Assembly: GCA_963788655.1 (NCBI GenBank)
Contig: CAWBHS010000057.1
Span: 224,001-288,000 of the forward strand
DNA length: 64,000 bases
Direction: 5' to 3'
DNA from: an uncultured Verrucomicrobiae bacterium
GTDB taxonomy: Bacteria > Verrucomicrobiota > Verrucomicrobiia > Limisphaerales > JAFGQR01
Shown here in pieces: positions 1-38,648 of this stretch. The position numbers were made by a program, and so were the translations under genes. The notes under the pieces were generated by a model that was not told where the DNA came from, did no database searches, and saw nothing but the letters and a program-made list of their open reading frames with translations. Positions within the stretch are counted from its first letter, which is position 1; the number at the start of each line of letters is the position of its first letter.

Positions 1-673
1 AATTCACCGAGCCGCTGCCGGAGCCGGTTGCCCCCGCGGTAATGGTGATCCAGGAATTCGTGTTGATCGTCTCCCAATCGCAACCATTGTCGGTGGTCAC
101 CGCCACGGTCCCCAGTCCGCCACCGGCGTTGAACGAGTCACTGTTCGCACCCAATGAATAAGCGCAACTCCCCTCAATGGTCACCGTGCCGTCCACGTAC
201 GTGGAACTCAATGGCGTGGCAAACTCGTCCGACACTTCGCGACCAATCGGCTGGTCTCCAAGAGTCACCGGGGTGGCGACCGTGCTCGTACCGGGAGCGG
301 CGGCGAAGCACACGTCAACAACCACCTGGGAGCCTGCGGGAAAGGTGGAGCTGAAATAAAGCGCCACGGCGCATCCAACACGACCCGACTCAGCCTGATT
401 GGCGTTGAGCACCAAGGGGAACGCGCTGCTGGCGCCGCTGCCCAAACTCGCAGAGACGAAGGTCAGCAGGGCGGGATCGTAATTCAGACTGAAGCCCAAG
501 GCATTTTCATCGCCCTGGGCCTCCAGAAAAACTGACAGACACTGCGTCTGTCCACGGGAAACCGTCATGTCCCCAACCCGCAAACTTCGTTCAGCGCCGA
601 AACTGGCTGACACAAGCGTCAGCATTAACAGCGAAACGACCGCCAAATACCTTGTGTTGACTGATTCTCTCAT
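1..673 (-). CDS. Secreted cohesin-like + BACON-repeat protein (partial; continues beyond left edge; absent from ORF track)
   Basis: Manual translation from ATG at 673: MRESVNTRYLAVVSLLMLTLVSASFGA (signal peptide), then cohesin-like LEAQGDENALGFSLNYDPALLTF...DQPIGREVSDEFA..., then BACON-like CAYSLGANS...GCDWETINTNSWITITAGATGSGSGSV. Open frame to position 1. Confidence 0.85.
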   Translation of the reverse strand, partial: MRESVNTRYLAVVSLLMLTLVSASFGAERSLRVGDMTVSRGQTQCLSVFLEAQGDENALGFSLNYDPALLTFVSASLGSGASSAFPLVLNANQAESGRVGCAVALYFSSTFPAGSQVVVDVCFAAAPGTSTVATPVTLGDQPIGREVSDEFATPLSSTYVDGTVTIEGSCAYSLGANSDSFNAGGGLGTVAVTTDNGCDWETINTNSWITITAGATGSGSGSVN

Positions 674-863
674 ATTTCGATCCCATTTATTGCCAATCCT
701 TTAAATAGTCGGCTGCCAGCCGGTTTTCTGAAATCCGTAAGACCCCTAAGCCGGCCATCGGGGAAATACCTAAAAGGCTCTCCGGGCAATTGCGGTACGG
801 CGCGGCTCGCCCCGCTTAACGCGGTAATCCGGGATTTGTTCCTCATTGGAGACTGCGTCCGGG

Positions 864-3800
864 CTATTGTTGCTTCACGGCCCGGTAAAATCGTTGCGCA
901 AAATTGGTGGTGCCAAGGTCGATGAAATCGATGGTCCCCAGCGTATTGGTCAGGCGAGACAGCGTATCCCAATGCACCAGATTGGTTGAACCTTGCACTT
1001 CCCAAATCTCGCCGGGCACGCCGGACAGCGTCAGCTTCATTTGTCCGGTGGCGGCGGGCATGGTGATCGGCCCGAGGGTGACGCCCACAGTGGAAAACTG
1101 CTGGGTGACCGTGAACAATTGATTGGCCACGACCAACTGGCCCGTACGCTCCTCAAGACCGGTATTGGCGCTCACTTCATAGCTCACGCTGCCGTCGCCG
1201 GAACCACTCTCGCCCGCGGAGATCGTGATCCAGTCATTGGGGTTTTCGACGGTCCAATTGCACCCGTCGCCGGCCGTCACCGTAATCAAGCCGCTTTCCG
1301 AGCCCGGACCATGAGTAGCCTCGGTCGGCGCAATTACCCAGGTGCAATCCGATCCCGACTGGGTCACGGTAAAGAGCGCAAACGGATCGCCGGGAATGGT
1401 CAACATACCGGTCCGTTCATTGCGCGTCGGATTGGGCGCCACGGTGTAGGTCACGGTGCCGAAGTTGGTGCCGTCCGGACTGGAAGTGAGGGTGATCCAA
1501 CTGTTGGTGCTGACCACCGTCCAACTGCAACTGGTCAGCGAGGAGATGGCCACTTGGGCAGTTTCCTGGGCCGGGCCGTGGATGCGGTTGGTCGGCGAGA
1601 ACTCGAAGAGGCAAAACGCGCCGCGTTGGTTCAAGGTGAAAACCTGATCGGCAACAAACACGAGCCCGGTCCGTTCGAGAGCGCTGATATTGGGCGGAAT
1701 CGTATAACTGAATTCGCCGTTGCCGCTGCCGGTGGTGCTCGAACTGATCGTGATCCAGGCGTTCGTGTTGGATACCGTCCAATTGCAGCCGTCGTTGGCC
1801 GTCACGCTCACGGTGCCGCTGCTGGCGCCGCTGCCGTGCAACCGGTCCTCCGGGGATAATTTGTAACTACAGGTTTGGCCCTGTTGCCCCAGGTTGAAGG
1901 GTTGGCCGCCAATAACCACCACGCCGGAACGGTCATTGAACGTGTCATTGGCTGCCACGGAGTAACTGACCTCGCCGGGGCCGGTACCGGTCAGGCCCGA
2001 GGTGATCGTGATCCAACTGTTCGTATTCTCGACGAGCCATTCACATCCGTTCAGCGTGGTCACGCTCACCGTCCCGGCCGCAGCGCCGTAACCGTGCGTG
2101 CGACTGCCCGGGGTGATGGAATAGGTACACGGTGAACCAATTTGCGTCACGCGGAACGCTTCGCTGCCAATGGTCACCACGCCGGTGCGGTTACTCAGGC
2201 CCGCATTGGCGTCCACGGAGTATTGCACTTGCGTGCTGCCGGTGCCGGTGGGGCTGGAGCTGATCGTAATCCAATCGTTGGTGTTGACCACGGTCCACGT
2301 GCAGCCGTCGAGCGTTGTCAGGTCCACCGTGTCCGCGGCGGCGCCGTAACCATGGGTGCGGTCAATGGGAGACAACTTATAGGTGCAGGGCCGTCCCACT
2401 TGACTCACGCTGAACACCTGATTGGCGATCACGATCACGCCTGCCCGGCCTTCGATGCCCGGATTATCTTGCACGGCATACTCCACGTCGCCACTGCCGG
2501 TCATGCTCGGGGCGGAGTTGATCGTGATCCAAGTGTTGGTGTTCACTACGTCCCACGTGCAACCGTCGAGCGTCACCACACTCACTTGGTCTGTAGCCGC
2601 GCCGTAACCGTGCGTGCGATTGATCGGCGTCAATGCATACGTGCAGGGCACGCCCGCCTGGATCAACGTAAAGGGTGTGCCGCCAACGGTCACTACACCG
2701 GTCCGGTCATTCAGGCCGGAATTATCCGCCACGTTGTAGTTCACCGTAGTACTGCCCTGCCCATTCGAGCTCGTCGTAATGGTGATCCAACTATTGGTGT
2801 TAACGATCGTCCAACTGCACCCGCTGAGGGTGGTGAGGCCGATCGTGCCAGCGCTGGCGCCGTAACCGTGGTTGCGACTGGTCGGTGACAAGGCGTATTC
2901 ACAGGGGGCGCCGGTTTGCGTCAGCACAACCGTTTCGCCGCCAATCACGAGCGTCCCGGTCCGGGCGTTGGGACCTTCGTTGGCGGCCACCGTGTAGTTG
3001 ATGGTAGCACTGCCGCTGCCTTCGGGATTGGAGGCAATGGTAATCCAAGTGTTGGTGTTCACCACACTCCAGACGCATCCATCGAGCGCAACCAAGTTCA
3101 CACTGTCGGCCGCCGCGCCGTAACCGTGCGTGCGGGTCGTCGGCGTCAATGCATACGTGCAGGGCACGCCCGCCTGGATCAACGTAAAGGGTGTGCCGCC
3201 AATGGTCACCACGCCGGTCCGGTCATTCAGACCGGGATTGGCCACCACGGTGTAGTTCACCGTGGTACTGCCCTGACCGTTGGGACTCGTCGTGATGCTG
3301 ATCCAGCTATTGGTGTTGACGATCGTCCAAGTGCATCCGCTGAGGGTGGTGAGGCCGATCATGCCGGCGCTGGCGCCGTAACCGTGGTTGCGACTGGTTG
3401 GCGACAAAGCGTATTCACACAGGGCGCCGGTTTGCGTCAGGACGAGCGTTTCACCCCCAATCACGAGCGTCCCGGTCCGGGCGTCGGGACCTTCGTTGGC
3501 GGCCACCGTGTAGTTGATAATCGCGCTGCCGCTGCCCTCGGGGTTCGAGGTGATGGTAATCCAAGTGTTGGTGTTCACCACGCTCCAGGCGCAACCATCG
3601 AGCGTCGCCAAGCTCACACTGTCAACCGCCGCTCCGTAACCGTGCGTGCGGGTCGTCGGCGTCAATGCATAGGTGCAGGGCACGCCCGCCTGGGTCAATG
3701 TGAACGGCGCGCCGCCAATGGTCACCACGCCGATCCGGTCGTTCAAGCCGGGATTGGCCACCACGGTGTAGTTCACCGTGGTACTGCCCTGCCCGTTGGG

Positions 3801-4550
3801 ACTCGTCGTGATGCTGATCCAGCTATTGGTGTTGACGATCGTCCAACTGCACCCGCTGAGGGTATTGAGGCCAATCGTACCAGCGCTGGCGCCGTAGCCG
3901 TGATTACGACTGGTCGGAGTCAAGGTATAGGTACACGGGGCGCCGGTTTGGATCAGGACGAATGTTTCACCGCCAATCACCACCGTCCCACTCCGGTCGT
4001 TGGGGCCTGGATTGGCGGCCACCGTGTAGTTGACTTCAGTGCTGCCGGTGCCTTCGAGGCTCGTCGTGATGGTAATCCAGGCATTGGTGTTCTCCACGGT
4101 CCAGGGGCAGCCGATGACGGAGGTCAAGCTGACGGCGCCGCCAGTCGCGCCATATCCATGGGTCCGCCCGGTCGGCGACAACTTGTAGGTGCAAGGGCGC
4201 CCGCGTTGCGTCACGTTGAACGGTTGGTCAGCAATGACGAGCACGCCCGTCCGCTCGGCGGAACTTGGATTGGCGTCCACACTGTAGAGGATGTCGCTGG
4301 TGCCGGCGCCACTGGCGCTGGACAGAATGTCGATCCAGGTGTTCGTGTTCACCACCGTCCAGGCACAGCCGCTGGTGGTCACCACGGAAACCCGATCGGT
4401 GGTGGCGCCGTAACCGTGCGTGCGCTCTATCGGGGAGAGCGCATACGTACAAGGCTCGCTCGCTTGGGCTGGGCTTTGACCGAGGACAGCCAAAGTTATC
4501 GCCAAGGGCATAAGGGCCCTCCACACCTTCTGGTTGAAGAAATTTCTCAT
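864..4550 (-). CDS. Secreted protein of 13 tandem BACON-like (Cys-containing Ig-fold) repeats with C-terminal RFYR-type tail
   Basis: ORF 864..4592; likely start MRNFFNQKVWRALMPLAITLAVLG at 4550. Counted 13 repeats of ~86 aa (CTYxLxPxxRxHGYG...GCxWxVVNTNxWIxI...RTGxxxIG...FxxxQ). Tail ends QRFYRAVKQQ. Confidence 0.85.
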   Translation of the reverse strand: MRNFFNQKVWRALMPLAITLAVLGQSPAQASEPCTYALSPIERTHGYGATTDRVSVVTTSGCAWTVVNTNTWIDILSSASGAGTSDILYSVDANPSSAERTGVLVIADQPFNVTQRGRPCTYKLSPTGRTHGYGATGGAVSLTSVIGCPWTVENTNAWITITTSLEGTGSTEVNYTVAANPGPNDRSGTVVIGGETFVLIQTGAPCTYTLTPTSRNHGYGASAGTIGLNTLSGCSWTIVNTNSWISITTSPNGQGSTTVNYTVVANPGLNDRIGVVTIGGAPFTLTQAGVPCTYALTPTTRTHGYGAAVDSVSLATLDGCAWSVVNTNTWITITSNPEGSGSAIINYTVAANEGPDARTGTLVIGGETLVLTQTGALCEYALSPTSRNHGYGASAGMIGLTTLSGCTWTIVNTNSWISITTSPNGQGSTTVNYTVVANPGLNDRTGVVTIGGTPFTLIQAGVPCTYALTPTTRTHGYGAAADSVNLVALDGCVWSVVNTNTWITIASNPEGSGSATINYTVAANEGPNARTGTLVIGGETVVLTQTGAPCEYALSPTSRNHGYGASAGTIGLTTLSGCSWTIVNTNSWITITTSSNGQGSTTVNYNVADNSGLNDRTGVVTVGGTPFTLIQAGVPCTYALTPINRTHGYGAATDQVSVVTLDGCTWDVVNTNTWITINSAPSMTGSGDVEYAVQDNPGIEGRAGVIVIANQVFSVSQVGRPCTYKLSPIDRTHGYGAAADTVDLTTLDGCTWTVVNTNDWITISSSPTGTGSTQVQYSVDANAGLSNRTGVVTIGSEAFRVTQIGSPCTYSITPGSRTHGYGAAAGTVSVTTLNGCEWLVENTNSWITITSGLTGTGPGEVSYSVAANDTFNDRSGVVVIGGQPFNLGQQGQTCSYKLSPEDRLHGSGASSGTVSVTANDGCNWTVSNTNAWITISSSTTGSGNGEFSYTIPPNISALERTGLVFVADQVFTLNQRGAFCLFEFSPTNRIHGPAQETAQVAISSLTSCSWTVVSTNSWITLTSSPDGTNFGTVTYTVAPNPTRNERTGMLTIPGDPFALFTVTQSGSDCTWVIAPTEATHGPGSESGLITVTAGDGCNWTVENPNDWITISAGESGSGDGSVSYEVSANTGLEERTGQLVVANQLFTVTQQFSTVGVTLGPITMPAATGQMKLTLSGVPGEIWEVQGSTNLVHWDTLSRLTNTLGTIDFIDLGTTNFAQRFYRAVKQQ
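2650..3941 (-). repeat. Near-identical 516-bp intragenic tandem repeat (2 BACON units per period, ~2.5 copies)
   Basis: Odd-numbered repeat starts at ~3941, ~3425 and ~2909 (516-bp spacing) with long stretches of nucleotide identity. Confidence 0.8.
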
Positions 4551-4616
4551 ACTTCTGCTCTCGTTTGCTTGTGGTTCGTTACACCATTTCATTCGTCACT
4601 GGATTCGGAAATTCGT

Positions 4617-4669
4617 AAATCCCCCCGGCGCGCCCTCCGCAGATTCGCGGCGCGCGGGGACGGGGATTT
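4617..4669. other. GC-rich intergenic stem-loop between CotH gene and BACON gene
   Basis: AAATCCCC...GGGGATTT outer arms and GCGCGCC/GGCGCGC inner arms. Confidence 0.5.
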
Positions 4670-4717
4670 GCTGAAACTGGAACATGATCGCGCATTGCCA
4701 TGATTGGTTCGCACTGG

Positions 4718-7700
4718 TTATTGGCTTACCGCCCGATAGAATCGCGGGTTCGCGTTGATGGCATCCGCGTCGATGTATTCCACGGTGCCGGTCGTATTGG
4801 TCACGGTGGTCAAGGGATCCCAGTGTTCGAGATCCGCCGAGCTTTGCAATTCCCACACGGCACCCGGCTCACCGAACAGGATCAGCTTCACGCCTCCCTC
4901 CGGAAGGGGCGCGACCTCTTGGAACATGACGCCGCTGGTGATGGTGACCGTCGCATTCTCGTAGGTCGCTTCCAGGATGTTGGCAAACGAGTCCGATACC
5001 TCGCGGCCAATGGGGAAATCACCCATGGTGACGGAAGTGGAAGCCGTCTCACTCACCTCCGCCGCCTGGAAACAAACCTCGGCAATCACGTGCGTCCCGG
5101 TTGTGAATGCGGTCCCAAACGGCAGCGCGATCAGCAAGCCCACCGCGCCGGAATCGGCGTGCGCCGTATTGACAATCACGGTGGCGTTGCTGGCGTCGCT
5201 GCCCTTGGTAGCCGACAGGAAGGTCAACAACTCCGGATCGAAGTTGAGGCTGAAGCTCAAGGCATTTTCATCGCCTTGGGCCTCCAGTAGAATTTGCAGG
5301 CAATTGGACTGGCCGCTGCCAATATTCATGTTGGCGACCGTGATCACGCGCTGTTGCTGGGGCGCAAAACCTTTGGTGGACGACGCGCCCGCGCCCGGAT
5401 CGAGCAACAGCGGCGCAAATCCCGGGGCGGAACCGCCCACGGGTACCGCCGGGTCCAATCCCGCGGCATAACGCCCGGCCTGCACCCAATCGGAAATGGT
5501 GATGCTGCCGTTACCGGAAGGTTTGGGCGCGCAGTCCACCCGGGAAAATTCGCACGGATCGGTGGTGGTATCGAGGCCCGCGGCAAAGCGCCCGACCTGC
5601 ACCCAGTCGGAAATGGAAATCGCTCCGTTGCCGTTGGGCCGCGGCGCAGCATCGGCCATCAGACCGCTGCACGAACTGCCGCCACTGACCACCACGGTGA
5701 AACTTTGGGTCGCGCTCAAGCTCGGCACCCCGCTGTCCGTGGCGGACACCAGCACCCCGTTGGTACTGGGGCCCTGACCCGAGCCAGGGGTCCAGGTGAA
5801 GACGCCCGCCGGGCTGACGCTGGCACCGGCGGGTCCCGAAACCAGGGAATACGTGAACGTTTGTGCCGGCAGATCGGTATCGATCACCGGGATCGTGAGA
5901 CTGACCAAGGTGCCGACACTGACCGACTGGTCCGCCATGGGATCAATGACCGGTGGATTGTTCACCTCGTTAACCGTCACGGTAAACGTCTGGGTGTCAT
6001 TCAATGCCGGTTCTCCGTTGTCGGTGACGGCGACGGTGATCGAGTAATCGACGCCGCCCTGGGATTCGATGGGAGTCCAGGTGAACCCACCCGTTGCCGG
6101 ATCAATGGCAGCCCCGTACGGCGCTCCCGCCATCAACGAAAAGGTCAACGGCTGGGCCGGCACGTCGCCGTCGGTGGCGAACACCGTAAAACTCAGTAAT
6201 TGGCCTTCATTCACGCTGCGGTCCAGAATCGGCCCCAGCGTCGGCGCATACACATTGCCAGTGACAATGTTGGAGGTGCCGGGCGTGGGCGTGGTCATGA
6301 ATTGGAAACCACCGGTAAGGTTGCCATCGTGGAAGCGCCCCTGGCTGACGTCGGCGATTTGGCTGCCGAAAATAACCGTATCCACATTCACGCCTTCAGG
6401 ACTGAACAGGCCGATTTCATCCCCGCTCTTCGAGATTTTGAAACTGGTGTGCAGGGCGTTTCCCATCATGTTGGTGCCGGAATTGTCATTGTCCGCCCAG
6501 CAGAGCAGGAAGCTGTTCGGCGCGAGGGTAACGCCCTCGGGAATGCGCCATTCCTTCTCATTGTTCAAGCTGTCGGTCAGATAGAACCCGGACAAATTGA
6601 GCGTGAGCGACCCGAAGTTGTAGAGTTCGAACCAGTCGTCATACCGCTGCGTGAGGGGATCCAGCAACGTGCGCGTGTTGCTGGCCATCCACTCGTTGAT
6701 CACCACCGGCACCGGCGCCGGATTGTTGGCCGCGCCGGGCGTCACGAAATAGAACAGTTGTTGGTCAAACAGTTGTCCGTCCGGGTAGGCGCCAAAGGAC
6801 AAGCCGGGGGACATGTTGGTGTAATTGAGGTAATCCACGATCAACTGCCCGCGGGAGAGCGCCACCGAGCCATTGACCGGATCGAGCCGGAAAGAGGTGT
6901 GCAACACCGACTCCGTGGAAAGCTCCGGCTGGCCATCGGCAAAGATGATGCGGAACTCGCCGGGATTGATCAAGGTGCCGGCGGGGAAGGCCCATTCATT
7001 CAGCGGGTCATAGGTCGCAGAAAGGAAGAAACCGTCGAGCGACAGGATGTTGGTGCTGCTGTTGTACAGTTCGATCCAAGGTTGGGGTGTGCCGGAATTG
7101 TCCACCAAACCGTCCGGATTGTCCGGCTGGACTTCATTGATCCAGACCAATGGATAAGCCGGCAGCGTACCGGTACCCCAATTGGCCTCGCCGGGCGTGG
7201 CGTACGCGGGACGTGCGTCGAGCTCGGACAGAAAGGAGCCCACCCCCAAACGCACAGTGAGCGTGTTGGCGGTGGAACCGGGATTCGAGCGGTACCAGAA
7301 ACTCAGGGTGTAAGTGTTGGCGGTGTTGATGGTGGTCACGTCCTGGTACAGGCAGCGCGACGTACTGCCTGACCGCGCAAAGACCAGGTGCAGGCTGCTG
7401 GCACCGGAATGGGCCAGGGCTGTGCTGACCGCGGAGCCCTCCGCACCGTTGGAGCCCAGCACGCCCCAATCACTGCCCAGCGGTAATTCGAACTCGCCGT
7501 TTCGCACCGCGTTGTCGCCGACCCCGGGCACCGACCCTGGCACCAGCGTCATGTCGTCGATATAAATATCCCCCGCGGCATCGAGGTAGAGGTAAATACG
7601 GGTGCCGGACGGTTTGCCGGTAAAGCTGAAGAAATGCCAGGCGGACCCGTCATCCCAGTTGCTCACCCGGGAGTTGTCCTGGGCGGCATCGATGAGTTGC

Positions 7701-10700
7701 AGTGATTTGCCTGCGCCGGGGGTAGCCGGACCGGCGGGCCAGGGCGGTTCGGCGCGGAACTTCACCTGGTCGATGACGATGTCCGTCTCATTGGTCGTCG
7801 GGGCGCGCTGGAGCAACGTCAGCCGTTCCCCGTCGGGATCGAGGTTGCCGTTGAATTCGCCGGCGATCCGCGGGCCAGTCCCATAGGCCGTTTGGAACGC
7901 GACGGTGTCCTTCACCACCATCAGGAACTCCTGCGGGCCAATAATGGTTCCGGGACCGAAATTAAAATCGACGCCCTTCAACCGAAAGTCGGCCAGGCCA
8001 AACGTGGTGTTGGTGGAGCGATTGTAAATCTCGACGTACTCAGCATTGGTGACGGCAGGATTATACATGATTTCGTTGATCACCAGGCTGTCTTCCAGCC
8101 GGCTGACCGGGCCGTCGAAATAGATGGTCATGGCGGTGGTGGCATCGCCCAGTGGATTGCCATCGGCGTCGTAGCCTTGCACGACGAGGTGGTTGGTCTG
8201 GCCGCTGAGCGGTACTTGCGTGGACCAGTTGGTGATGGTGGACCAGGTGATCGGATAAGCCACGCCGTTGATGGTGATCTCGCGCGCGGAAATCGAAGCC
8301 GTGCCCTCAAGGGTCACCAGGGTGCTGCTACTGGTATAATCAACCCCGCCGTGGGTGGTGATTGCAAAGTCCACGTCCGCCTGCTGGAGCAACCAGAAGA
8401 TGTAATCGCGCCGGGCGCCCAGGAAGTTTTTCACCGCGGTGGGTTCGGCCGCGTTGATGCCGCTAGCCAGGTAGGCGGCATTGCGGGCGTCGAGCACCGG
8501 GTGCAACCGGGAGGGATCGAGCGGGCCGTAGGCGGCATCCTCGAGGGCCTGCCAATAATAGCGCAGCACCAGGGGTTGGTTGAAGAGATTGGTGATCGGC
8601 GGATCGGAGAAATCAAAGAGCGAATCCGTGGGATTGCCGGAGAACGCGGCGTCGATGTCCCAGATGAAGAACCTCCAGGACATCGCCACCGGGCTTGTAC
8701 AGGAAAGCGTTCTGGCCGCCGGGTTTGGTGGCGTCACCTTTGATGCGGCGGCTGCCATACAGGTCGGTGTTATTGATGATGCGCTCCGCCGCAAATGATC
8801 GCGCCCATTCGAGGATATCCACATTAGGATAGACTTGCGCGGCATAGGCATCGCCCGTGGCGGTCGTATTCAAAATGTCCACCAGGCTAAAGAGGTTGGT
8901 GTAATTGTGGGCCGAATCCTTCACCGCGCGCTTGGGAAACGTTTGACGGTAGCGGGCCAGTTTCTTGACCCCACCCGTCGTCGTAAAGGGCAGGAGGCTG
9001 GGAAGCGTATTGCCATGGTGGGTGGTGTCGTCGCTGTACTCATACCAGTACGCCACCTTGTACAATCGCCCGCGGGAGCTGTCGGGATACCATTGGGCAT
9101 CAAAATCCTTGTTCGGCCGCTGGGTATCTTCGTAAATGATGCCCCGGCGCAAACCGTTAATAAACATATTGACCGCGCGTCGATGGAGCGCCGGAATGCC
9201 AAGTTGATCGACCAGCCAGAAACCAATTTGTTCATCCAATCCCGTGGCGTCTTTGCCCCACAGACCGGGTTGCTGCACCCGGATGGAATCCGCATCCATC
9301 AGTCGGTCATCCGACGGCAGGAGAATCTGGTAATCGCAGTTCGTGCCGATAGGCGAATCATACAGTTTGGTGTGGGCCGGACTGCCGGCGTAGTGGCTGC
9401 CCGCGTTGTAAATGGTGCGAAAGTTGCCATAGACAAACGTGCCGGCAAAAATATCGTTGCTGAATTTCTCCTGCGCCAGCCAGTTGTTCAGGCTCGCCTG
9501 GGTCAGCCAGAAACGGTAGGTGCCGTAGGTGGCCAGGGGTTGTTCGCTGCCAAAGTTCACCAGGCATTCGCGGGTCGGGGCGTCGTTCGGAAATCGCGTC
9601 GTCGCCGCCGGCGAATACTGGTCGGTAGCTTGCACGTAAAACGCCACCAAGGTGCCCTTCGGCTGGCCGGGAATGGTGGCCGCATACACCCCGTCCTTGG
9701 GAATCGCGTCGCCACCGGTGCCATTGTCCACCATCGTCAACGTGGCCGGAGCACCAAAGGGATCGATGCGATAGATCACTTGGACGGAGGCCAGCCCGTC
9801 GGGATCGTACACGCGGGCCCGGATGACGACCGGCTCGCCGTCCGCCGGCAGCACCGGAGTAGGAGTGATGTCGTCAATGGCCGGGCCGGTGTTGGCCGCC
9901 CAGCGGCTGTTGCGTTCACCGGGCGTTCCGAGATTGGGCGGCACGTCGAGCACGCCGGCAACTTCCAACATGTTACCGCGAAGTCGAAAGAGGATTTCCG
10001 GCTTGCCATGGAGCCATTTGACGCGAGCGGTGATGGATCCGACGACGTTGGAGGGATAGCTCTGGGTCAGATGGGTATAAATCCGATTGGCACCGGTGTC
10101 GCCACCATCGGTCGCCACGACGTGCAGCGAGCGGGTGCTGTTGTAGCCGGTGGTTTCCAGGTAGCAATGTTTATGGTTGCCCTGGAAGACCCAATAGTCC
10201 AAGCCGGTTTGAAAGGTCGAGTTGGTGACCATGTTCAGACCGCCGGCCGTGTCGGTAACGCGCACATCCACGTTGTCCACCAGGCACTCACCCCGATCCA
10301 GCATCGTAATTTGCAGCGAGTCCCAATCGCTCGGGGAATCGTCGCCGTTGTCGAGCCGGCCACTGGTGGTCACCAGGGTCCACGGGCTCTTGGCCGAATC
10401 GTCACTGTCGGCCCAGTTGCTCGCCAGGCGATTGTCGCTGCGGGGATCGATGAGTTCGAGGCTGCTGCCTTCGCCATCATTCCATTTGCCCCAACGGCCC
10501 CCGGTGCCATAACTCACCTCGTCCACGACGATGTAAATGAGGTTGGTTTTCACCACGCCGTTCAGGTTGGTGCTGACGACGGTGTCGGGCATCGACACCG
10601 CGATCCGTTCCCCGGAATTCTTGAGGCTGCCACCATAGTCGCCCACCGTATTGTTGGCGTTCAGAACGGGATATTTCGACCGCAACTGCAGCGCGTTCTT

Positions 10701-13700: not shown

Positions 13701-14643
13701 AAAAGACCGGGGCAATGGTGTCCGGGAGCACGGTCAGAATGGCTTCGCTCGAGGTTTGCACGCCGAAGATGTTGCTGACCACGCAACGGAACCGTGCGCC
13801 GTTGTCATTGGTGGTCACCGCCGAAAGCGTGTAGGTGGCGCCGGTGATCCCGGAGAGCACCCCACCGTCGCGCTGCCACTGGTAACCCACCGCATCCAGG
13901 TTGGCTACTTCCACGTGGAAACTGGCCGGCGCATTCTCCAGCACGGTGGTCGAGGAGGGCTGCCGCAACAGCACGGGTTGGGTCGAGGGCGCGGCACCAA
14001 AAGGGAGCAGCCGCGTGGCTGGCATCGGCAGTTCCATGGTGCCATCGGGAAGCTTCCAGCCGACGTTGAGGAAATCGTATCCCAAGCCCGCGCTTTGCAG
14101 CGCTTCGATGTAATAGCGTTTGCCGGCTTCGAGATAGATGCTGGGTGATTGCTGGCTGGGATGATTGAAATAGGTACCGTAGGTCACGGTATTGGTCACC
14201 ATGCCAATGAGTTGTTTGTTGGCCGGACTCTCGTCCGTGCTCAAGAGCAGTTGGCCGGTGTCATCAGCGGCAATCCAAAACACGTACGTGCCCGACACCG
14301 GTGGCACCACCAACGCGCGCAACCGCTGCCCGTAATAGTCACCGTATTGAAGCGGCGTCGTGAATTCATTGGTCAGCACCTCGGTGAACGTGGGGAAATC
14401 GGGGAAGCTGGAATCGTTCGTCAACCCCAGCAGCGAACTACTGATGAGCCCGGTATAGACCTGGCGGTAAACGCCGTACGATTGGCCCCAAGCCGGTGTC
14501 CCCGCTCCCAGCAGGAGCAGCAGCGCGGCGAGCAGGCCGCGCCATCCGCTGAATATCCTGGCGACCGGGCGGTGGCGCCGCGCTTCGCTTCCCATCGCTC
14601 GGGGAGTTTGTGGTCTCGCCAAGCGTCTCATGTGCAATTGCAT
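4718..14643 (-). CDS. Giant secreted CotH-kinase family protein (~3,300 aa): PA14 x2, Ig/Big, ConA-like, lamin-tail domains, CBM-like, CotH, cadherin-like Ig x2, dockerin-like, cohesin-like, RFYR tail; split by 2 frameshifts (~13130, ~8680)
   Basis: Joins ORFs 12973..14685, 8613..13127 and 4718..8851. SD AGAAAGG precedes ATG 14643. PA14 motifs (YGQRLRA..PPxSGxYxFWIAADD), repeated LTD starts (V(I/F)(N/S)EIMYHP, INEWMASN), CotH-like ERIINNTD...SWRFFIWDIDAAF across the second frameshift. Confidence 0.8.
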
Positions 14644-14710
14644 AAATGACCTTTCTAAAGGTTGATCCCTCCCTGGACCGACCACGTTCTTGTCTTAACG
14701 AATGATCGGA

Positions 14711-29700: not shown

Positions 29701-31103
29701 GCCGGCCGGAACTGGCCTTCCATATCCACCGTTACGTAATCATAATTCCCCTGGGCGGCGCCGAGTGCGGGACTGTTGGTGGCGGGACGCCACAGGCCGT
29801 CGGGGGCCAACTCCAGCAATGGATCGACCATGGTGATGCCGCTGTTGGGCGGAATGCGCAGGGTGGCGCCATACATGATGTTGCCCTGCCAGAACATGTT
29901 CACCGGCTCGAGACGCTGGTCCACAAGCTTGTTGGTGGTGTAAACGACATTGTTGGCAATCGTGCAATCCAACGGCGGGAGCGTCGTCGTTTCCGAGGTG
30001 CCGGTCAGCGTCGCCTCCAGCCCGATCAGGATGCTGTCATCGCAGTTGACAAACGTGTTGAAAGCCACGGTGGCACGTTTGACCTGCAAGTAACCGTTCT
30101 GAGGACTGTTGATCAATCCCTGCATCAGGGCCAGAGAGGCGTGCGACGCCGAGCCGGTCAGGTCCACGAAATAGTTGTCATAGATTTTATGGTCCTCGCC
30201 GCACACCCGGACCCCACCGGTAAGCGGTTTACCGTTACCAAAGAAGTAATTGCCCTCGACGACGGAGCCGTTGCCATGACGCAAGGTCAGGGCACCTTCG
30301 CATTCGAAGAAGGTGTTGCCGCGATAGGTGTTTTCGCCGGACTTGCCCGAGACCACTTCGACATCACCGTCGCACTGCTCGAAGAAATTGTACTCCACCA
30401 GGGCGCGGGAAAGGTTCAGCGACACGTCGCTGGTGCCAATGCGGATGGTTTCCCCGCCGTTGCGTCCCAGGGGCGGCCGCGGGCCGAAATGATTGTGGTC
30501 GATGCGATGGTAATTGGGATGGTCCGGCTGGCTGTCCACCCACACCACGAAGGTGGTGCCGCCATTGTTCTTGCCTTTGAAGTAGCAGTGGTCCACCCGG
30601 TTGCTGGTGCCATACAGCGACACCCAGAGGGTTTCCAAACTGGGATCCGCCGGGTTATAATCGATGATGGCGCACTCGGTCAGCCGACAATTGTTGGCCA
30701 CCGAGATCGTGGATTCGCGGAAGGAGATGACTTCATCGGACGTCACGAAGCCGTTTACGAATTGCAGGCCATCGACCACCAGGTAGCTGCCCGCCAGGCG
30801 AAGCCGGGATGTGCCGCTCAGGATCACCTGGCCGGGCGTTTGCGCTCGCAGCGTAATGGGATTGGCCGCGGTGCCATTGGCTTTGAACAGGATGTCCGCG
30901 TTCTGCCAGACCCCATCGCGCATAATCAGAGTGTCGCCCGGCCGGGCGAACAACAAGGTCACGGAAAGGTCCGCCACACTCGTCACCAAAAACTCGGTGC
31001 CCCGTGCCACTCCGCTCAGCATTAGTAAGGCAAGCAGCAGGCACCAGCCGCGACCGCGGCGAAGCATTGCCCCATAAGACTTCTCTCGACTCAACACATT
31101 CAT
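14711..31103 (-). CDS. Giant secreted modular protein (~5,460 aa): PL6 (chondroitinase B/alginate lyase) domain, 4 ITW..ITYG repeats, degenerate zincin domain, PKD, 5 BACON, cohesin-like, 14 FWWKVSSE beta-sandwich modules alternating with Ig I-set, RFY tail; about 7 frameshifts
   Basis: Joins ORFs 22935..31211, 26845..27057, 21199..23448, 20520..21347, 19844..20758, 19540..19944 and 14711..19513. Repeat register continues across breaks at ~27057/26940, ~23203, ~21390, ~20690, ~19900 and ~19545. PL6 motifs GGETIRIGTS, EVVSGKS and LTLRHG, with Lys and Arg 21 residues apart as in PL6 lyases. Signal peptide ...WCLLLALLMLSGVARG. Confidence 0.8.
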
Positions 31104-31142
31104 AGTACTTCCATTCAAATTCATCGGACGCACACAGCCGTC

Positions 31143-31168
31143 CGGGAGGTCGTCCAATTGACCTCCCG
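31143..31168. other. Intergenic hairpin (perfect 9-bp stem) between algG-like gene and giant lyase gene
   Basis: CGGGAGGTC-N8-GACCTCCCG. Confidence 0.6.
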
Positions 31169-31236
31169 AACACACTGCTTCATAGGGAAAAATTCCACGG
31201 CGAAACTTCATATAGGTTTTCAGGTCAGGGATCCGG

Positions 31237-33139: not shown

Positions 33140-33186
33140 AGGATTACTGCTGATCCGGCACCGTTTGTCTCGTTCCTGAAACCGTC

Positions 33187-34560
33187 TTAAGCGGCGCCCA
33201 CGGTCTCCGTCTCTTCTACGTCCACTTGGGCCTCGGGCTTTAAGCGTTTTTTCGCTTCGATGATCCGTTTCACGAGATGGTTCTTGCCCCGCAGATCGGC
33301 GATGATCGGTCGTTTGCCCATCTGGACGACCCGGTCCAGCAGTGCTTCGTCGTCCCGAGTAATCACCAAAACCTCAGAGTGTTCGATTAATTCATCCAAG
33401 CTGTTCACCGTGCGGCTCGACAGATGGGGGATGTGTTTTTCGATGTAATCCCGGTTGGTGCCCGCGATCATCGAAGTTGCAATCGCCGAATCATGGATCT
33501 TCACGTCGTACCCCTTGCCAATGAGGTTTTCGGCAATCAGCACAATCGGGCTTTCGCGCAAGTCGTCGGTGCCTGATTTGAACGCCAGGCCATTCAGGCC
33601 GATCCGCAAGTGACCGTTCTTCGGCACCGCGTCCATCGCTCGCTTCAAGTGGGCTTCATTGCTGGCCAGGACGCCCCGCATCAGCGGCAGGTCCACGCCA
33701 TTACGGTTGCCGACCTGCACGAGCATGCGCAAGTCCTTGGGCAGGCAAGAACCGCCGAAGGGAAGTCCGGGCCGTAAATACGCCGGTGAAACGTTCAGCT
33801 TGCGATCCATCACGAAGTGCTTCATCAAGGAATGGCCGTCCACGGAAAGCGCCGAACAGAGCGAGCCGACTTCGTTCGCAAAAGCCACCTTGAGGGCATG
33901 AAAGGCGTTGCAGACCGCTTTCAAGGTTTCGGCCTCGCGCAGCGGAATCCACACCAGCGGATCCTTGATGCCGCCAAACAGCGCTTCAATGGTCTCCCGG
34001 TTGTCGTCCGGTTGGCCGCTCGCACTGCCGACGACAATAAAGGGCGGATCATTGTAATCCGCGATGGCCGAGCCTTCGCGCAGGAATTCCGGCACCACCA
34101 CCAGGTCGCTCTCTTGGAACAGCGCCGACGCCGGGCTGTTCGGGTGCAGCGCCGGGAAGACGACGTTCTCCGCCGTGCCCGCCGGCACCGTGCTGCGCAG
34201 GATCACCACATGCCGATCCAGCTTCTCTGGCAGGGCGGAACCAATCAGTCTGGCCGTTTGCTTGAGCGCCACCAAATCAAGGCTGCCGTCGGGACCGGTC
34301 GGCGTCCCCACACAGATAATGGAGGCGTCGGTCGTCAAGACCGCCGCCCGGCCATTGGTGGTCGCGGTCAGCCGCCCTTGGCGGTGGGCCTCGGCAATCA
34401 ATTCATCGATGCCGGTTTCCACGACGGTAGGCCGTCCGGAAGCGAGTTTTTCCACTTTGTCAGGGAGGACATCTACTCCAATGACCTCATGCCCGTTTTT
34501 GGCCAGGCACGCCGCCGTCACGCAACCCACGTAGCCCAGACCGAATATGCTGACTTTCAT
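33187..34560 (-). CDS. algD: GDP-mannose 6-dehydrogenase (nucleotide-sugar dehydrogenase)
   Basis: MKVSIFGLGYVG..CLAKNGHEVIGVDV, PEFLREG, YLRPGLPFGGSCLPKD (catalytic Cys), GLAFKSGTDDLRESP and GTNRDYIEKHIPHLS all match AlgD-type motifs. The ORF track offers upstream starts to 34599. Confidence 0.85.
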   Translation of the reverse strand: MKVSIFGLGYVGCVTAACLAKNGHEVIGVDVLPDKVEKLASGRPTVVETGIDELIAEAHRQGRLTATTNGRAAVLTTDASIICVGTPTGPDGSLDLVALKQTARLIGSALPEKLDRHVVILRSTVPAGTAENVVFPALHPNSPASALFQESDLVVVPEFLREGSAIADYNDPPFIVVGSASGQPDDNRETIEALFGGIKDPLVWIPLREAETLKAVCNAFHALKVAFANEVGSLCSALSVDGHSLMKHFVMDRKLNVSPAYLRPGLPFGGSCLPKDLRMLVQVGNRNGVDLPLMRGVLASNEAHLKRAMDAVPKNGHLRIGLNGLAFKSGTDDLRESPIVLIAENLIGKGYDVKIHDSAIATSMIAGTNRDYIEKHIPHLSSRTVNSLDELIEHSEVLVITRDDEALLDRVVQMGKRPIIADLRGKNHLVKRIIEAKKRLKPEAQVDVEETETVGAA

Positions 34561-34712
34561 AATGTTTCTTTCCATTACCTTTCGTTCGTTAGTGTTCATC
34601 TATTTCCCCGTCTATGTATAATTAACCGGTTGGGATTACCTACCATGTTGCGGGGACAGCCACCATGGGAACAACTACTTCGGCCCATCACTGTATTTCT
34701 ACGATCACCCCC

Positions 34713-35963
34713 CTAGGGGATTTCCCGAACCGTCGCGGTTTCGTTTCTGGCCGGCGTGGCCGAGCGGGTCCAGGAAAACAGGCCGCTCAGAAATGTGCCC
34801 ACGCTGGCTTCATCACCGTCGGCGTCCCGTCGGATGCCCACCACGGCCGAAAGCCCCAAGGGCAAGTTTGAGTTGTCACCGTCCAATGCGATATAAACCG
34901 GTACCATGGCGTTCTTGCGCACCAGGGTGTGTAAGGTGGTCGGAACGGGGGCAAGCTGCAGGTGTTTGTCGGTCATGACTCCGATGGCTTGCACTCGGCC
35001 GGACAAATTGTGTTTCGGAAATGCATCCAGCGAGATGTCCGCCAGACTGCCCACTCGGATCTCGTTCAGATCCCGTTCGTCCACCCAGGCTTCCACCCAG
35101 GGACGTCCGATCGCCATGGCGATCATCGGTTCGCCCACGCGGGCTGAACCGCCCACCTCGACGATCCGTTCCAACACCCGGCCCTCCGCCGGCGCCCGGA
35201 TGACGGTGGACGCCAAGTCGGCCTCGGCCGCCTTGACTTTAGCGCGCGCCACTTCGACTTGCGACTCGAGCACGGCCAACCGGGCTTCGCGCACGCGCAA
35301 GCCATCGAGTTCGGTCGTTGCGGTTTGATAGCTGGACTCCGCCGCATCCACTGCTCCCTTGGCGGATTTGACCAACGCCAGCGATTGGTTGCGCTGGCCC
35401 GTGATCTGGTCCATCTCGCTTTGCGCGGCAATACCGGTCTTGATCAGTTGCGCGGCGCGGCCGTAATCTTTCTCCAGCCGTTCCAAGTTGGACTTCTCTG
35501 CTTCATAAGCGCCGATTGCTGCTTTGCGCATCCCGTTCAGCCGGGCGATGTCCAACGTTAGCCGGCGGCGCTCCTGTTCGATGGCCATTTTCTCGACGGC
35601 TAATTCGGTGCTCATGCGCGCGAACTCCGCCCGCTCTTCCGCCACCGTCGCCGCCAGATGATCGTCTTCCAAACGCAACAACACGTCGCCCTTGGCTACG
35701 CGCTGGCCGATATCGACCTCCACGCTCTCGACGCGGCCTTCGAGCCGGGCGCCAATGCGAGTGACGACGCCGTTGACGACGGCTTCGCCCAGGACCAGGT
35801 GTTCATAGCGGTAACAGCCCCAAGGAATCCCAATGCCCAAAGCGGCGATGGTCAGCAAACCGACCAGGCAAATGACAGTGACGCGAATCACCGAGCGGGC
35901 CGACCGCTTGGAAGGAGTTGGAGTTTGGGTGGGGGGGGATGATTTATCGTTTGGATGACTCAT
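34713..35963 (-). CDS. HlyD/EmrA-family membrane fusion protein in the Alg44 position (no PilZ domain)
   Basis: Short N-tail, single TM, split lipoyl motifs (GRVESVEVDIGQRVAKGDVLLRL; VIRAPAEGRV), coiled-coil hairpin and beta-barrel. Overlaps the alg8 stop. Confidence 0.8.
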   Translation of the reverse strand: MSHPNDKSSPPTQTPTPSKRSARSVIRVTVICLVGLLTIAALGIGIPWGCYRYEHLVLGEAVVNGVVTRIGARLEGRVESVEVDIGQRVAKGDVLLRLEDDHLAATVAEERAEFARMSTELAVEKMAIEQERRRLTLDIARLNGMRKAAIGAYEAEKSNLERLEKDYGRAAQLIKTGIAAQSEMDQITGQRNQSLALVKSAKGAVDAAESSYQTATTELDGLRVREARLAVLESQVEVARAKVKAAEADLASTVIRAPAEGRVLERIVEVGGSARVGEPMIAMAIGRPWVEAWVDERDLNEIRVGSLADISLDAFPKHNLSGRVQAIGVMTDKHLQLAPVPTTLHTLVRKNAMVPVYIALDGDNSNLPLGLSAVVGIRRDADGDEASVGTFLSGLFSWTRSATPARNETATVREIP

Positions 35964-38055
35964 GCAGCAGGTGCCTCAAAGATTTTGCCTGATCACTATT
36001 GGCATCCTTGCGCACTGGCGGCATCGCCTTCCGTAGCTTCAACATCAAACTGTCCGTCGGCAGTTTGAAACTCTGTTGATAAAGCTCGGTGCGAGTCGAA
36101 GCGTTCTCGTACGCGAGCTGATAATTTGTCAGGGAACGGAAAATTAGTTGTTGCAAATCCGTGGGGGGCTCCGACAACGGATCCGGCCGTCTCTCCGCCG
36201 CGGCTTCCAATAGTGTCGGGACCAACGGCTCTGGAAGCCGCCTCGTGGTCACTGGTTCCCGGTCAGGAGTCGCAATGGTTTGGCCAAACTCAGCCGGATC
36301 GTTCGTCATCGAATGCGACGTGCCGACCTCAAAGGTGGTGGTCCGGGCACGGGGATTAAGAAACAGCCGCGCTTCCCGAAACACGGGCAGAAAACCGACA
36401 AAGACCCCGACGACGATTAGCAATGCCGTGGTGGTGAAAAGATACAAGTAATGGGCGAAGCCGGTACGCAAGCCATAAAAGGCGGAGCCGCGAACGGCGT
36501 TCAGCTTGCGCGCCCCGCGATTGAGCCACGATTGCTTGGCCGGATGGAACAGGACCCAAAACTTGGTCAAGGCGGTCGCCCAGTCCGACACGATTTGCAA
36601 GGGCACGTAATAGGCCGAGAACCGTCGGCCCTGCCGCCAGGCGACGGCGGCATGGGTCAACCGCGAGGTCAACACCCAAAGCAAGTAACCCGCGGCAACT
36701 TCGTAGCGGCCAGCGCAGAGCGCCAGCAGCAACAGGCAAGGTCCCACGAGCACGGTGCCCATCGCCAAGCGCTGGTCCACCAGACTCCACCAGGGGAACA
36801 GCCCCAGTTTCCGAGGCCCAAGTTTGATGGCCCGCCAACTGTGGCGCACACTGTTGCCGGACCACCGCCGGATGTTGGCCAGCGCGCGTTGCACCGCGCT
36901 ACCCTGGACCACTTCAATCGTGGTCACCATGGCGTCCGGCACATACAGCATCCGTTGTTGGTGGGCCGCCATCCAAAACCAAGTGGTCTTGTCATCGCCG
37001 CTCAACATTTCGAACGAGCCCCAGAGCCAATTGCTGATGAGATCTTGCCGAACCAGATTTCTAAAACTCGCATCCTTGATCGCGGTCGCGCGAAACACCG
37101 AAAGCCGGCCGGTCAGACACAGCAGCCGGCCCGACAGCGCCACGGAACACATCGTGCGGTGCCGCAAACCGAACCGGAGTGATATCCATTCCGCAAACCA
37201 GGTCGGACCTTTGACCCAGCCGTTCTCGTTGGTGGTCACGGCGCCGACGGCCGGCTGCAGCCGGAACAGCGGCAGGACCTTGGCCAGCATGCCGGGTTGC
37301 AGCAAGGTGTCGGCATCCATGAAGACCACCACCCCGTCGTCATGCGGATTGCCCTGGGCGATCTCTTCCATGCCTTTGCCCAAGGCTTCGCGTTTGCCAT
37401 TTTCGCCACGCCGAAGAATCAGTTCGGGCGGCCACAAGTCATTTGCCTGGTCCTCCGGTGACGTGCAGCAACGAGCAAAAACTTCTTGGATGTTTTGATC
37501 ATCTTCATCGCATCCAGTCACCACGACCACTTTGGGCCGGCATTGCAGGCCGGTCACGGCGCGCAATTCGCGAAAGACCGATTCAAACACCACGGCGGTG
37601 ATCCAAGGTTTCTCATGATAAGTTGTGGCCAGGATGATCACCTCCGGCACGGGCCCGAATTGCTGCACGGCTCGGGCTGCCGCGCGACGCAGCCGGGGAT
37701 AGGTGAAATAGCGGTATAAAATCGCCCGCACGTTTTGGATGAGGAACCAACTCCACCGCCAACAGGCAATGCCGCCAACCGTAAGCAGGACTTCAATTCG
37801 TTGGAGCATCCAGAAGTGGACGTCGCCCACGATGCTGATGAGGGTCATCATCAGCCAAGCCAGCAGCGCCACCAGCACCAGTTGACTGGTCCACGGCGCA
37901 CCATTTCGGCACCGCCCCACTTCCGCGGAAACCGCATTGCGGAATTCCCCGGGTTGTGGCCCGGTGGTGCCAAAAAACTCCCTCCGATTGGGGGCAAACG
38001 ATAAAACACCGCATGCGTGATCCACATCGGGGGGATATCCTTTTCCCTTGTTCAC
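35944..38055 (-). CDS. alg8: Alg8-type processive GT2 (mannuronan/alginate synthase catalytic subunit-like)
   Basis: MDADT (DxD), LCLTGRLSVFRA, LSGDDKTTW, RRWSGNSVR and LVDQR motifs parallel Alg8 (LTGRMSVFRA, GDDKSSW, RWYGNNLR, LDQR). N- and C-terminal TM helices. Confidence 0.8.
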   Translation of the reverse strand: MNKGKGYPPDVDHACGVLSFAPNRREFFGTTGPQPGEFRNAVSAEVGRCRNGAPWTSQLVLVALLAWLMMTLISIVGDVHFWMLQRIEVLLTVGGIACWRWSWFLIQNVRAILYRYFTYPRLRRAAARAVQQFGPVPEVIILATTYHEKPWITAVVFESVFRELRAVTGLQCRPKVVVVTGCDEDDQNIQEVFARCCTSPEDQANDLWPPELILRRGENGKREALGKGMEEIAQGNPHDDGVVVFMDADTLLQPGMLAKVLPLFRLQPAVGAVTTNENGWVKGPTWFAEWISLRFGLRHRTMCSVALSGRLLCLTGRLSVFRATAIKDASFRNLVRQDLISNWLWGSFEMLSGDDKTTWFWMAAHQQRMLYVPDAMVTTIEVVQGSAVQRALANIRRWSGNSVRHSWRAIKLGPRKLGLFPWWSLVDQRLAMGTVLVGPCLLLLALCAGRYEVAAGYLLWVLTSRLTHAAVAWRQGRRFSAYYVPLQIVSDWATALTKFWVLFHPAKQSWLNRGARKLNAVRGSAFYGLRTGFAHYLYLFTTTALLIVVGVFVGFLPVFREARLFLNPRARTTTFEVGTSHSMTNDPAEFGQTIATPDREPVTTRRLPEPLVPTLLEAAAERRPDPLSEPPTDLQQLIFRSLTNYQLAYENASTRTELYQQSFKLPTDSLMLKLRKAMPPVRKDANSDQAKSLRHLLHESSKR

Positions 38056-38648
38056 TTGTTAAGAGCTTCCTTCTGAATCGCAATTCTTTATGGAATTGCA
38101 CCTATTAAAGCCTATTCCCCGAAAGATGTCAATCAGTTTCGCGGCCCATTGTGGCACCACTGTAACCTGCGTTTTAGCCCGAAAGAACAGTGGAATCCGG
38201 GGAGTTTTCCTACGCAATCCAATTGCGTTGCGCGCGAATGTGCGTCACTCATTACTCATTTGCAACCAGTAAATTAGCCTTCAGCTATTTTTCAGGGCGC
38301 CAGCCTTTGGGATGGTCAGCCCCAGAATTCCCTGGCATGAATGGCTGGTCCAACTTGACCGTCGATTGCTGCATGAACCGTCCATTGAATTGGCTGGTGG
38401 CTGCCTCGTGCGCCGCCCGGCAAGATTTGTCGGCGGTGTTTGTGGATCGCTGGCGTTTGCCACTGAGCGACGATGCTCGCGCCGTCATGCAACACGTTCG
38501 GTGGAATGCTGACCGACAACAGCGGTTGGCGTAATCGCGAAGCTCCCGGAAAATCCGTTCCGCGCGGACGCCGCACCGAAGCAACCTTGACGGCATCGAA
38601 AAACCTCCTTGCTTGACCATTCCAACTCAACCAGTAAAAACAACGACC

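Follow-up and report, generated by a model that had tools for sequence, protein, structure and literature searches.

An alginate-type synthase operon coupled to giant cohesin- and dockerin-bearing secreted proteins in an uncultured Verrucomicrobiae bacterium

Bacterial alginate synthesis has been characterized in Pseudomonas and Azotobacter, where it needs the second messenger cyclic di-GMP and a periplasmic scaffold. Here we describe a gene cluster of an uncultured Verrucomicrobiae bacterium (assembly GCA_963788655.1, 8.96 Mb, 86% complete) that lies in a 64,000-nucleotide stretch of one contig, the window (G000:C57:224001-288000, where G000 is the source genome and C57 the contig; other G numbers denote further genomes and L numbers fetched loci). 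With the Pseudomonas/Azotobacter system (algD-alg8-alg44-algK-algE-algG-algX-algL-algIJF-algA) it shares an Alg8-type glycosyltransferase of family 2 (GT2), a GDP-mannose dehydrogenase, an AlgG-type epimerase, a membrane fusion protein (MFP) that partners the synthase, and an alginate lyase, all encoded in a single operon. Unlike that system it has an adaptor without a PilZ domain and no AlgK, AlgE, AlgX, AlgL or AlgIJF in the cluster, while the order is alg8-MFP-algD-algG, the lyase is of polysaccharide lyase family 6 (PL6) and sits on a 5,500-residue secreted protein, and 45 kb of giant genes follow. The cluster is a conserved alginate-type system with rewired export, which works like the alginate pathway, stands outside the canonical Pseudomonas system and is not organized as a cellulosome.

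Putative alginate clusters in other bacteria and operons without algKE are already known, as the accessible text of two studies has it (PMC4444821; PMC7112194). The 'atypical' alginate operons without algKE or modification genes (Bundalovic-Torma 2020, PMC7112194) share with our cluster the loss of canonical outer membrane export genes, which is thus already on record for environmental bacteria, and the main text of that paper holds 0 occurrences of Verrucomicrobiota and no giant proteins. An alphaproteobacterial plasmid locus of Loktanella retains acetylation genes, unlike the cluster here. Cellulose export in Thermosynechococcus (Maeda 2018, as summarized in PMC8892547) likewise pairs a GT2 with an adjacent efflux-type adaptor and probably runs through TolC, but concerns a neutral glucan, whereas here a polyanion and an epimerase are predicted and TolC is cluster-linked only in relatives. 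In the available part of a preprint on Chlorobium chlorochromatii, Cag_2037/Cag_2038 (bioRxiv 10.64898/2026.03.19.712371) bring together surface proteins of large size with Ig repeats, an alginate lyase/epimerase that bears a cohesin, and a dockerin protein alongside; the enzyme there is of the AlgE/RTX type, exported by a type I secretion system, and attacks the capsule of a partner cell, whereas the PL6 here belongs to the producer's own operon. The cellulosome and the proposed 'planctosome' (PMC6461901, in the portion available) have type I cohesin and dockerin folds, lamin-tail domains and a dockerin-plus-cohesin protein in common with our cluster, which differs in having no multi-cohesin scaffoldin, one dockerin per cluster, a dockerin missed by Pfam and a biosynthetic context. 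A literature search with subscription papers mostly outside it gave no description of a Verrucomicrobiota alginate operon or of one joined to cohesin-dockerin proteins, though the supplementary tables of PMC7112194 and the epsSMASH preprint may list such. The coupling of an alginate core to a cohesin-dockerin tail via a PL6 giant is, to the extent of this search, new.

A sequence-only reading of this stretch had described eight co-directional, closely spaced genes, with about 31 kb of giant secreted proteins carrying a PL6 lyase, a CotH kinase, cohesins and a dockerin behind the synthesis genes, and this outline was recovered in full. On the minus strand, from position 38055 downward, lie GT2, MFP, dehydrogenase, a beta-helix protein and four giant secreted proteins with three cohesins and one dockerin, spaced between a 20-nt overlap and a 190-nt gap (listed ends of open reading frames, ORFs); the eight genes cover ~52.6 kb and extend 14.5 kb beyond the left edge of the window, to C57:209493. 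The Alg8, AlgD and AlgG assignments of that reading, and the verrucomicrobial mannuronan/alginate setting it proposed, are likewise borne out by homologue labels, motifs and enzyme and structure matches. Many of the 120 best homologues of the synthase are labelled 'glycosyltransferase Alg8' or 'mannuronan synthase', and the source labels of the close ones are Verrucomicrobiota or Verrucomicrobiales, with a few otherwise. The synthase is 34% identical (E 5e-77) to the GT2 of the Loktanella algD-alg8-...-algI-algF operon, which also holds a dehydrogenase, a beta-helix protein, an MBOAT and algF. The motifs DxD, TGR, GDDK and E..RW are invariant in an alignment of 27 rows made without Pseudomonas Alg8, and the invariant glutamate 16-17 residues before RW agrees with the E322/R339-W340 spacing in the accessible text of PMC4436075; no solved structure was matched by sequence or profile. 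The dehydrogenase scores 374 bits to the GDP-mannose dehydrogenase (GMD) 1mfz and 230 bits to the best UDP-glucose dehydrogenase (UGD). It carries the GMD-type motifs K...N..H and KLN.S..YLRPG..FGGSCLPKD, from which the UGD-type paralogue of the genome differs, and its prediction as an AlgD-type GDP-mannose dehydrogenase is supported.

The beta-helix protein is matched by the AlgG family NF038177 at E 5e-30, under the equivalog cut-off, with AlgG 4ozz as best PDB match (E 8e-18). It keeps the Y-G-F-DPHD catalytic site, of which Tyr and DPHD have catalytic roles in AlgG according to the text available of PMC4444821. Its orthologues in relatives are intact, with 630-700 aa. The PL6 domain of giant 1 ranks the alginate lyases 7o84 (333 bits) and AlyGC (315) above chondroitinase B (120), and its catalytic N, K and R-H are retained in 12 of the 12 copies listed, with one acidic position being Asp as against Glu in 7o84; these residues presumably act as in AlyGC, namely as Ca2+-site Asn and acidic residue, Lys base and Arg acid. 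A sister alg8 clade has no giants and instead extra AlgG copies, some with a secretion tag, PL7 or PF05426 lyases and a fusion of phosphomannose isomerase and phosphomannomutase (PMI-PMM). Since these PL7 lyases, AlgG copies and the fusion all point to mannuronate, a mannuronate polymer is suggested, and with high confidence we regard the product as alginate-type.

With respect to distribution, 18 of 401 order genomes have this type of alg8; a 19th match, G044, is of another type. A phylum-wide sample of 401 genomes gave matches only in G000, G015 and one PilZ-type locus. Of the loci of the 17 relatives 16 were fetched (all but G177), the window being counted beside them, and two contigs end at alg8. 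The adaptor gene directly follows alg8 in 15/15 genomes with a visible flank (window included), algD comes after the adaptor in 11 genomes, and one contig holds alg8, algG and the PL6 giant together in 8 genomes and 3/80 metagenome loci (L103, L104, L116). A marker segment of giant 1 is found in 14/401 genomes of the order from five families, 13 among the 18 with this alg8 and 1 among the 383 others, and within genus g1 and family f15 alg8 and marker are jointly present or jointly missing; the marker is lacking from five alg8 genomes, namely four members of the sister clade and G249 (80% complete). The joining of the alg genes to giant proteins that the sequence-only reading had put forward is conserved in relatives, and the giants are very probably a functional part of the alginate system. 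As to its proposed phylogeny of the GT2, the synthase stands in a 19-row subclade of its own among Alg8-family proteins (FastTree, 89 rows, support 95), a placement obtained without the Alg8 of Pseudomonas or Azotobacter.

The adaptor has one N-terminal transmembrane helix, preceded by ~27 residues and similarly short in the relatives compared, and an alpha-hairpin of ~150 residues. A Pfam scan detected no PilZ domain on it and did detect PilZ on the adaptor of the G044 locus, which served as positive control; the window adaptor is 24% identical to a PilZ-bearing adaptor adjoining another alg8. The scan covered 29 of the 99 listed window ORFs (all operon pieces of at least 150 aa and larger ORFs to the right) and gave no match to the AlgK, AlgE, AlgX, AlgL and AlgIJF families. 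The claim that Alg44, AlgK, AlgE, AlgX, AlgL and AlgIJF have no canonical counterpart holds, within the ORFs scanned, for these families and for PilZ, but the MFP is a positional counterpart of the periplasmic part of Alg44. Neither AlgK nor AlgE was present in the cluster, its flanks or the clusters of relatives, AlgK having been looked for only there. PF16822 and PF11182 were unmatched in the 86%-complete genome, where the controls were equally silent, and algI, algJ, algF and algX are absent from the cluster. In G015, G016, G095 and G028 a TolC-type gene and a PL8-CBM96-PA14 protein come right after giant 1; the cluster TolC is the only close copy in G015 and G016, and CBM96 is described as alginate-specific in the title of PMC9971899. 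Single queries found no PL7, PL8, CBM96 or PMI domain in the source genome. A route through synthase, adaptor and TolC, as in the synthase-HlyD-TolC route given for cyanobacterial cellulose in the accessible part of PMC8892547, is slightly favoured for export. Elsewhere in the genome, unlinked, are one Alginate_exp porin (PF13372), three PF05426 genes, two AlgI-like MBOATs and one small PilZ ORF. In L108 and L111 a TolC from a different subfamily is encoded immediately upstream of alg8.

The dockerin of giant 2 is identified by its fold: each of the 14 VIA-align matches is a dockerin or a chain that includes one (best Z 8.5, rmsd 1.4, 62 residues) and dockerins rank first in Foldseek at E above 0.001, while Pfam Dockerin_1 matches 0/52 members of this type and no PDB dockerin was found by profile. 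Its loops read D..P..[G/N]G..[T/S]..D and are not canonical Ca2+ loops. The adjacent cohesin has a type I cohesin fold (Z 19.4, rmsd 1.9, 136 residues; top 20 rows all cohesins), and the model of the pair (pLDDT 91, pTM 0.86 across a linker with pLDDT <50) suggests that the dockerin docks on its neighbour, a result that likeness to solved complexes may drive. This is also the general arrangement: among 53 dockerins (taken from the operon loci and from 40 top-ranking stretches) a cohesin follows 52 and precedes 41. The operon dockerins form a cysteine-flanked subtype without upstream cohesin, and that of the cluster is the sole dockerin of its type in G015, G016, G071 and G095, with three of the type in the source genome. 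There is one cohesin per giant here, at most two in orthologues, and one dockerin per cluster. Neither module occurs on the synthase, adaptor, dehydrogenase or epimerase, so that by the cohesin-dockerin route synthesis and epimerization cannot take place on a scaffold. That the lone cohesins derive from the upstream cohesin split from a Coh-Doc-Coh tail was rejected; the two profiles give them equal scores, and they fall with the downstream type. Complex prediction of the giant 1 cohesin with the giant 2 dockerin scored 0.00, and the controls did not fold either.

Cumulatively, we propose, as the likelier though by no means settled reading, that the operon makes an unacetylated alginate-type polymer by a synthase-dependent route, the finishing steps having moved outside the cell. 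By homology AlgD would make GDP-mannuronate, Alg8 would polymerize and translocate the chain and AlgG would turn some mannuronate into guluronate, at a location that is presumed. The PilZ-less EmrA-type adaptor may bridge Alg8 to a TolC-type channel, replacing AlgK/AlgE and direct control by cyclic di-GMP. The four tagged giants could form a surface layer of long Ig/BACON stalks, in which giant 1 would hold PL6 far from the cell to trim or release polymer, filling the role of the missing AlgL, and giants 2-4 would serve to bind the matrix, anchor it or give it a pattern. Cohesins and dockerin would be a lineage-wide structural module taken up by the cluster which may link giants, the default being that the dockerin clasps the adjacent cohesin.

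Several observations weigh against this proposal. A 44% AlgD paralogue in a separate exopolysaccharide (EPS) locus of the same genome has GMD-type motifs too, so these motifs alone are no proof of alginate; G015 (98% complete), G094 and G315 have no operon algD, with algG directly after the adaptor and only a 42-44% paralogue found; and the Alg8 tree, as said, is without the two reference genera. The operon AlgG does not carry the C-terminal tag shared by the giants, so its secretion is presumed, and nine of the 14 giant 1 genomes are of one genus, which makes the co-occurrence non-independent. TolC is on C91 in the source genome, not in the cluster, and because the cluster TolC family is found in 75/151 genomes of the order its role here can only be surmised; the PL8 of relatives is closest to xanthan lyase, not alginate lyase. 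Such relatives without operon algD and with a xanthan-lyase-like PL8, together with a synthase 31-35% identical to proteobacterial Alg8-type proteins in its own long-branch clade and several metagenome Alg8-family loci without an AlgG neighbour, would fit a polyuronide other than classical mannuronate/guluronate alginate, or another nucleotide sugar, with the giants serving that polymer. We consider this improbable, as GMD, AlgG with intact Y..DPHD, PL6 and PL7 lyases, CBM96 and PMI-PMM co-occur and each points to mannuronate. A shade less probable still is that the giants are a generic adhesin island merely adjoining an alginate operon whose product leaves via unlinked AlgE-like parts. The Alginate_exp porin on another contig, the many proteins sharing the tag, the commonness of CotH/lamin-tail proteins and of dockerins, and the sister alg8 clade that works without giants speak for it, as does G071, where the cluster is split in three (alg8-MFP-giant 2-3-4; algD-algG-giant 1; lyase-TolC-PL8). 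On the other hand, the giant 1 marker is in just one of the genomes without this alg8, giant 1 starts immediately behind algG and remains beside it where the cluster splits or duplicates (G071, G211), and giant 2 directly follows the adaptor in G071 and L127.

A biosynthetic cohesin-dockerin scaffold is close to what the sequence-only reading had inferred, and we hold it to be unlikely. In it, the lone cohesins of giants 1 and 4 would capture, in trans, dockerins carried by giant 2 and by lyases, giving a surface complex that trims and anchors the cell's own alginate. Such a scaffold would account for the grouping of the operon cohesins (28 rows, SH-aLRT 88, quick tree), the conservation of the lone cohesins of giants 1 and 4 across families, the distinct dockerin subtype and the existence of PL6-Doc-Coh (C103) and PL8-Doc-Coh (G094) proteins, and a cohesin-tethered alginate lyase is proposed for Chlorobium in the portion available of bioRxiv 10.64898/2026.03.19.712371. 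Yet there is no multi-cohesin scaffoldin and no set of dockerin-bearing enzymes, the dockerin type is generic in the order (136/401 genomes: 15/18 with this alg8, 121/383 others) and nearly always followed by its own cohesin, the biosynthetic enzymes are without either module, and the cluster of G028, which has giant 1, is without a dockerin gene; the cellulosome-like scaffold for biosynthesis is thus not established. Links in trans between cohesins and dockerins are, taken for themselves, doubtful, and we would give no more than a tentative place to the fuller picture of alginate exported via an adaptor-TolC tunnel and finished on an extracellular 'alginosome', in which giants chained by a dedicated cohesin-dockerin subfamily load PL6, PL8 and a CotH-type kinase onto the matrix of the producing cell. 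Under the preferred proposal, the four-gene core without PilZ, scaffold and acetylation would, if true, offer a less complex way of making unacetylated alginate and would directly test whether the periplasmic part of Alg44 is an efflux-type adaptor. It would also add alginate producers among uncultured Verrucomicrobiota and new AlgG-type epimerases, some apparently secreted, and provide a first functional handle on the widespread, little-studied cohesin-dockerin tails and the C-terminal tag of verrucomicrobial giants; the 'alginosome', if true, would mean cohesin-dockerin assembly used for building or shaping a polysaccharide, not for digestion.

Table 1. Features of the cluster, in window coordinates
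Feature	Position	Strand	Remarks
Alg8-type GT2 synthase (mannuronan synthase)	35944..38055	-	PF13641 E 2e-29; single copy in genome
EmrA-type membrane fusion protein	34713..35963	-	overlaps alg8 by 20 nt; best solved structure EmrA 4tko, E 1e-16
AlgD-type GDP-mannose 6-dehydrogenase (predicted)	33187..34599	-	best PDB match P. aeruginosa GMD 1mfz
AlgG-type mannuronan C5-epimerase, beta-helix	31237..33139	-	frameshift near 31985; signal-peptide-like N-terminus, conserved C-terminal extension
Giant 1, ~5,500 aa across 7 frameshifts	14711..31211	-	starts 25 nt after algG
PL6 alginate-lyase domain of giant 1	29928..30986	-	PF14592 E 6e-102
Metallopeptidase-like domain	27849..28799	-	PF12044 weak; Atlas M64/Metallopep 0.83; within giant 1 marker segment
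Cohesin of giant 1	25590..25991	-	profile A3 vs cellulosomal cohesins E 2e-6; in all intact orthologues read
Giant 2, ~3,300 aa across 2 frameshifts	4718..14685	-	orthologues intact, 3,310-3,451 aa, in G015, G016, G071, G095, G315
CotH-like kinase domain of giant 2	8673..9251	-	PF08757 E 1e-6; continues over frameshift near 8725
Divergent dockerin of giant 2, cysteine-flanked subtype	5429..5656	-	model pLDDT 90
Cohesin of giant 2, directly after dockerin	4937..5338	-	PF00963 over cut-off
Giant 3: 12 BACON repeats and C-terminal tag, no catalytic domain	864..4592	-	PF13004, 12 stretches
Giant 4 start: signal peptide, cohesin ~173-577, BACON	1..673	-	runs on to C57:209493

Giant 1 is composed of PL6, a degenerate metallopeptidase-like domain, PKD, BACON, the cohesin, at least 12 jelly-roll and at least 16 Ig repeats and the C-terminal tag, and its orthologues in relatives are intact at 4,259-5,550 aa. 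The metallopeptidase-like domain, in this sample confined to proteins of the giant 1 family, is without HExxH in 8 of the 8 copies listed and is, judging from this motif, probably inactive. Giant 2 has two PA14, Ig/Big_5, lamin-tail, CotH-like kinase, CBM4_9-like and He_PIG domains ahead of dockerin, cohesin and tag. Its CotH-like domain keeps N.D and WDxD, with HYAGS in place of the usual RG motif (motif names as we take them to be), and there are six further CotH loci in the source genome. Orthologues of giant 3 (970-1,158 aa) are in the same place in G015, G016, G071, G095 and G211. Giant 4, with ~5,100 residues, contains a cohesin, ~34 BACON repeats, Ig repeats, an SBBP propeller and the tag. 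The tag itself, ~60 residues ending in RFYR, is on all four giants (window 864-1080, 4718-4930 and 14711-14930) and on 107 of the genome's 37,989 ORF tails in a first search round and 189 in a second, has no match in Pfam or NCBIfam and is probably a secretion or sorting signal. Its presence on the operon AlgG was considered and rejected; only some AlgG paralogues carry it.

The eight genes are broken into 15 listed ORF pieces within the window by 11 frameshifts (one in algG, seven in giant 1, two in giant 2, one in giant 4; 0.21 per kb over the 52.6 kb). In a control set elsewhere in the genome 9/44 conserved genes are frameshifted, at least 0.19 per kb, and the orthologues in relatives are unbroken single ORFs; the frameshifts are therefore most likely assembly errors. 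Pseudogenization of the operon is unlikely, the frameshift rate being equal to the genome-wide one. The left flank, which the sequence-only reading had wanted read for export genes, holds the continuation of giant 4 followed by a CPBP protease on the opposite strand and sucA, with no export gene seen in the flank read there. A scan of 30500-39000 for promoters and terminators gave no more sites than in shuffles, and a pattern scan of the genome contigs with poorly conserved patterns and a viral scan gave one locus each. To the right of the cluster (38609-64000) are unrelated genes for PQQ/BamB-like propellers, an M78 peptidase, an aldo-keto reductase, a helix-turn-helix-cupin protein, HtrA and an S9 esterase.

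Further modules of the kinds described above were encountered elsewhere. Within giant 1, window 14711-25600 consists of a ~125-residue repeat with an SFWWKVS motif alternating with Ig domains, for which Atlas leads (<0.9) go toward CBM4_9, cleaved-adhesin and MAM folds and the best cluster (0.98) has no name. A second, frameshifted giant 1 paralogue (G000:C99:121k-135k, L045:3904-17143) is built as cohesin-PL6-...-cohesins-Ig repeats, with no alg gene in the 2.9 kb to the contig end. G000:C103 (L044:9795-12182) encodes a stand-alone PL6-dockerin-cohesin protein with the architecture of a cellulosomal enzyme and G094 (L067:1404-6401) a PL8-dockerin-cohesin protein. In G000:C38 (L049:7965-11042) an alkaline phosphatase with a canonical Pfam dockerin and a cohesin is followed by a small cohesin protein, a pair that represents a second, conventional cohesin-dockerin type in the source genome.

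In the sister clade, a 1,598-aa ORF directly after algG in G022 (L016:11649-16445) combines phosphomannose isomerase, phosphomannomutase and a further C-terminal domain. Arrays of AlgG-type epimerase paralogues occur in L124, L117, L200, L204, L206 and L036. Some of these paralogues repeat their N-terminal domains and some end in the secretion tag; the arrays resemble the Azotobacter AlgE family yet belong to the AlgG type. A second verrucomicrobial alg8 type has a PilZ-bearing adaptor (L020:10174-15247 in G044; L212 in G409), to which G044 adds a PAS-GGDEF-EAL gene, and its homologues include the Planctomycetota Stieleria, Rubripirellula and Mariniblastus. A separate Alg8-like clade of 21 rows, mostly ~700-760 aa (L134-L147, L151-L152, L154, L156-L159, L163-L165, L168, L176), has several members after a PilZ-less adaptor, often without algD or algG nearby. 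Alginate-type operons with acetylation genes lie on Loktanella and Rhizobium plasmids (L059, L060), and 14 records are on alphaproteobacterial plasmids and chromids.

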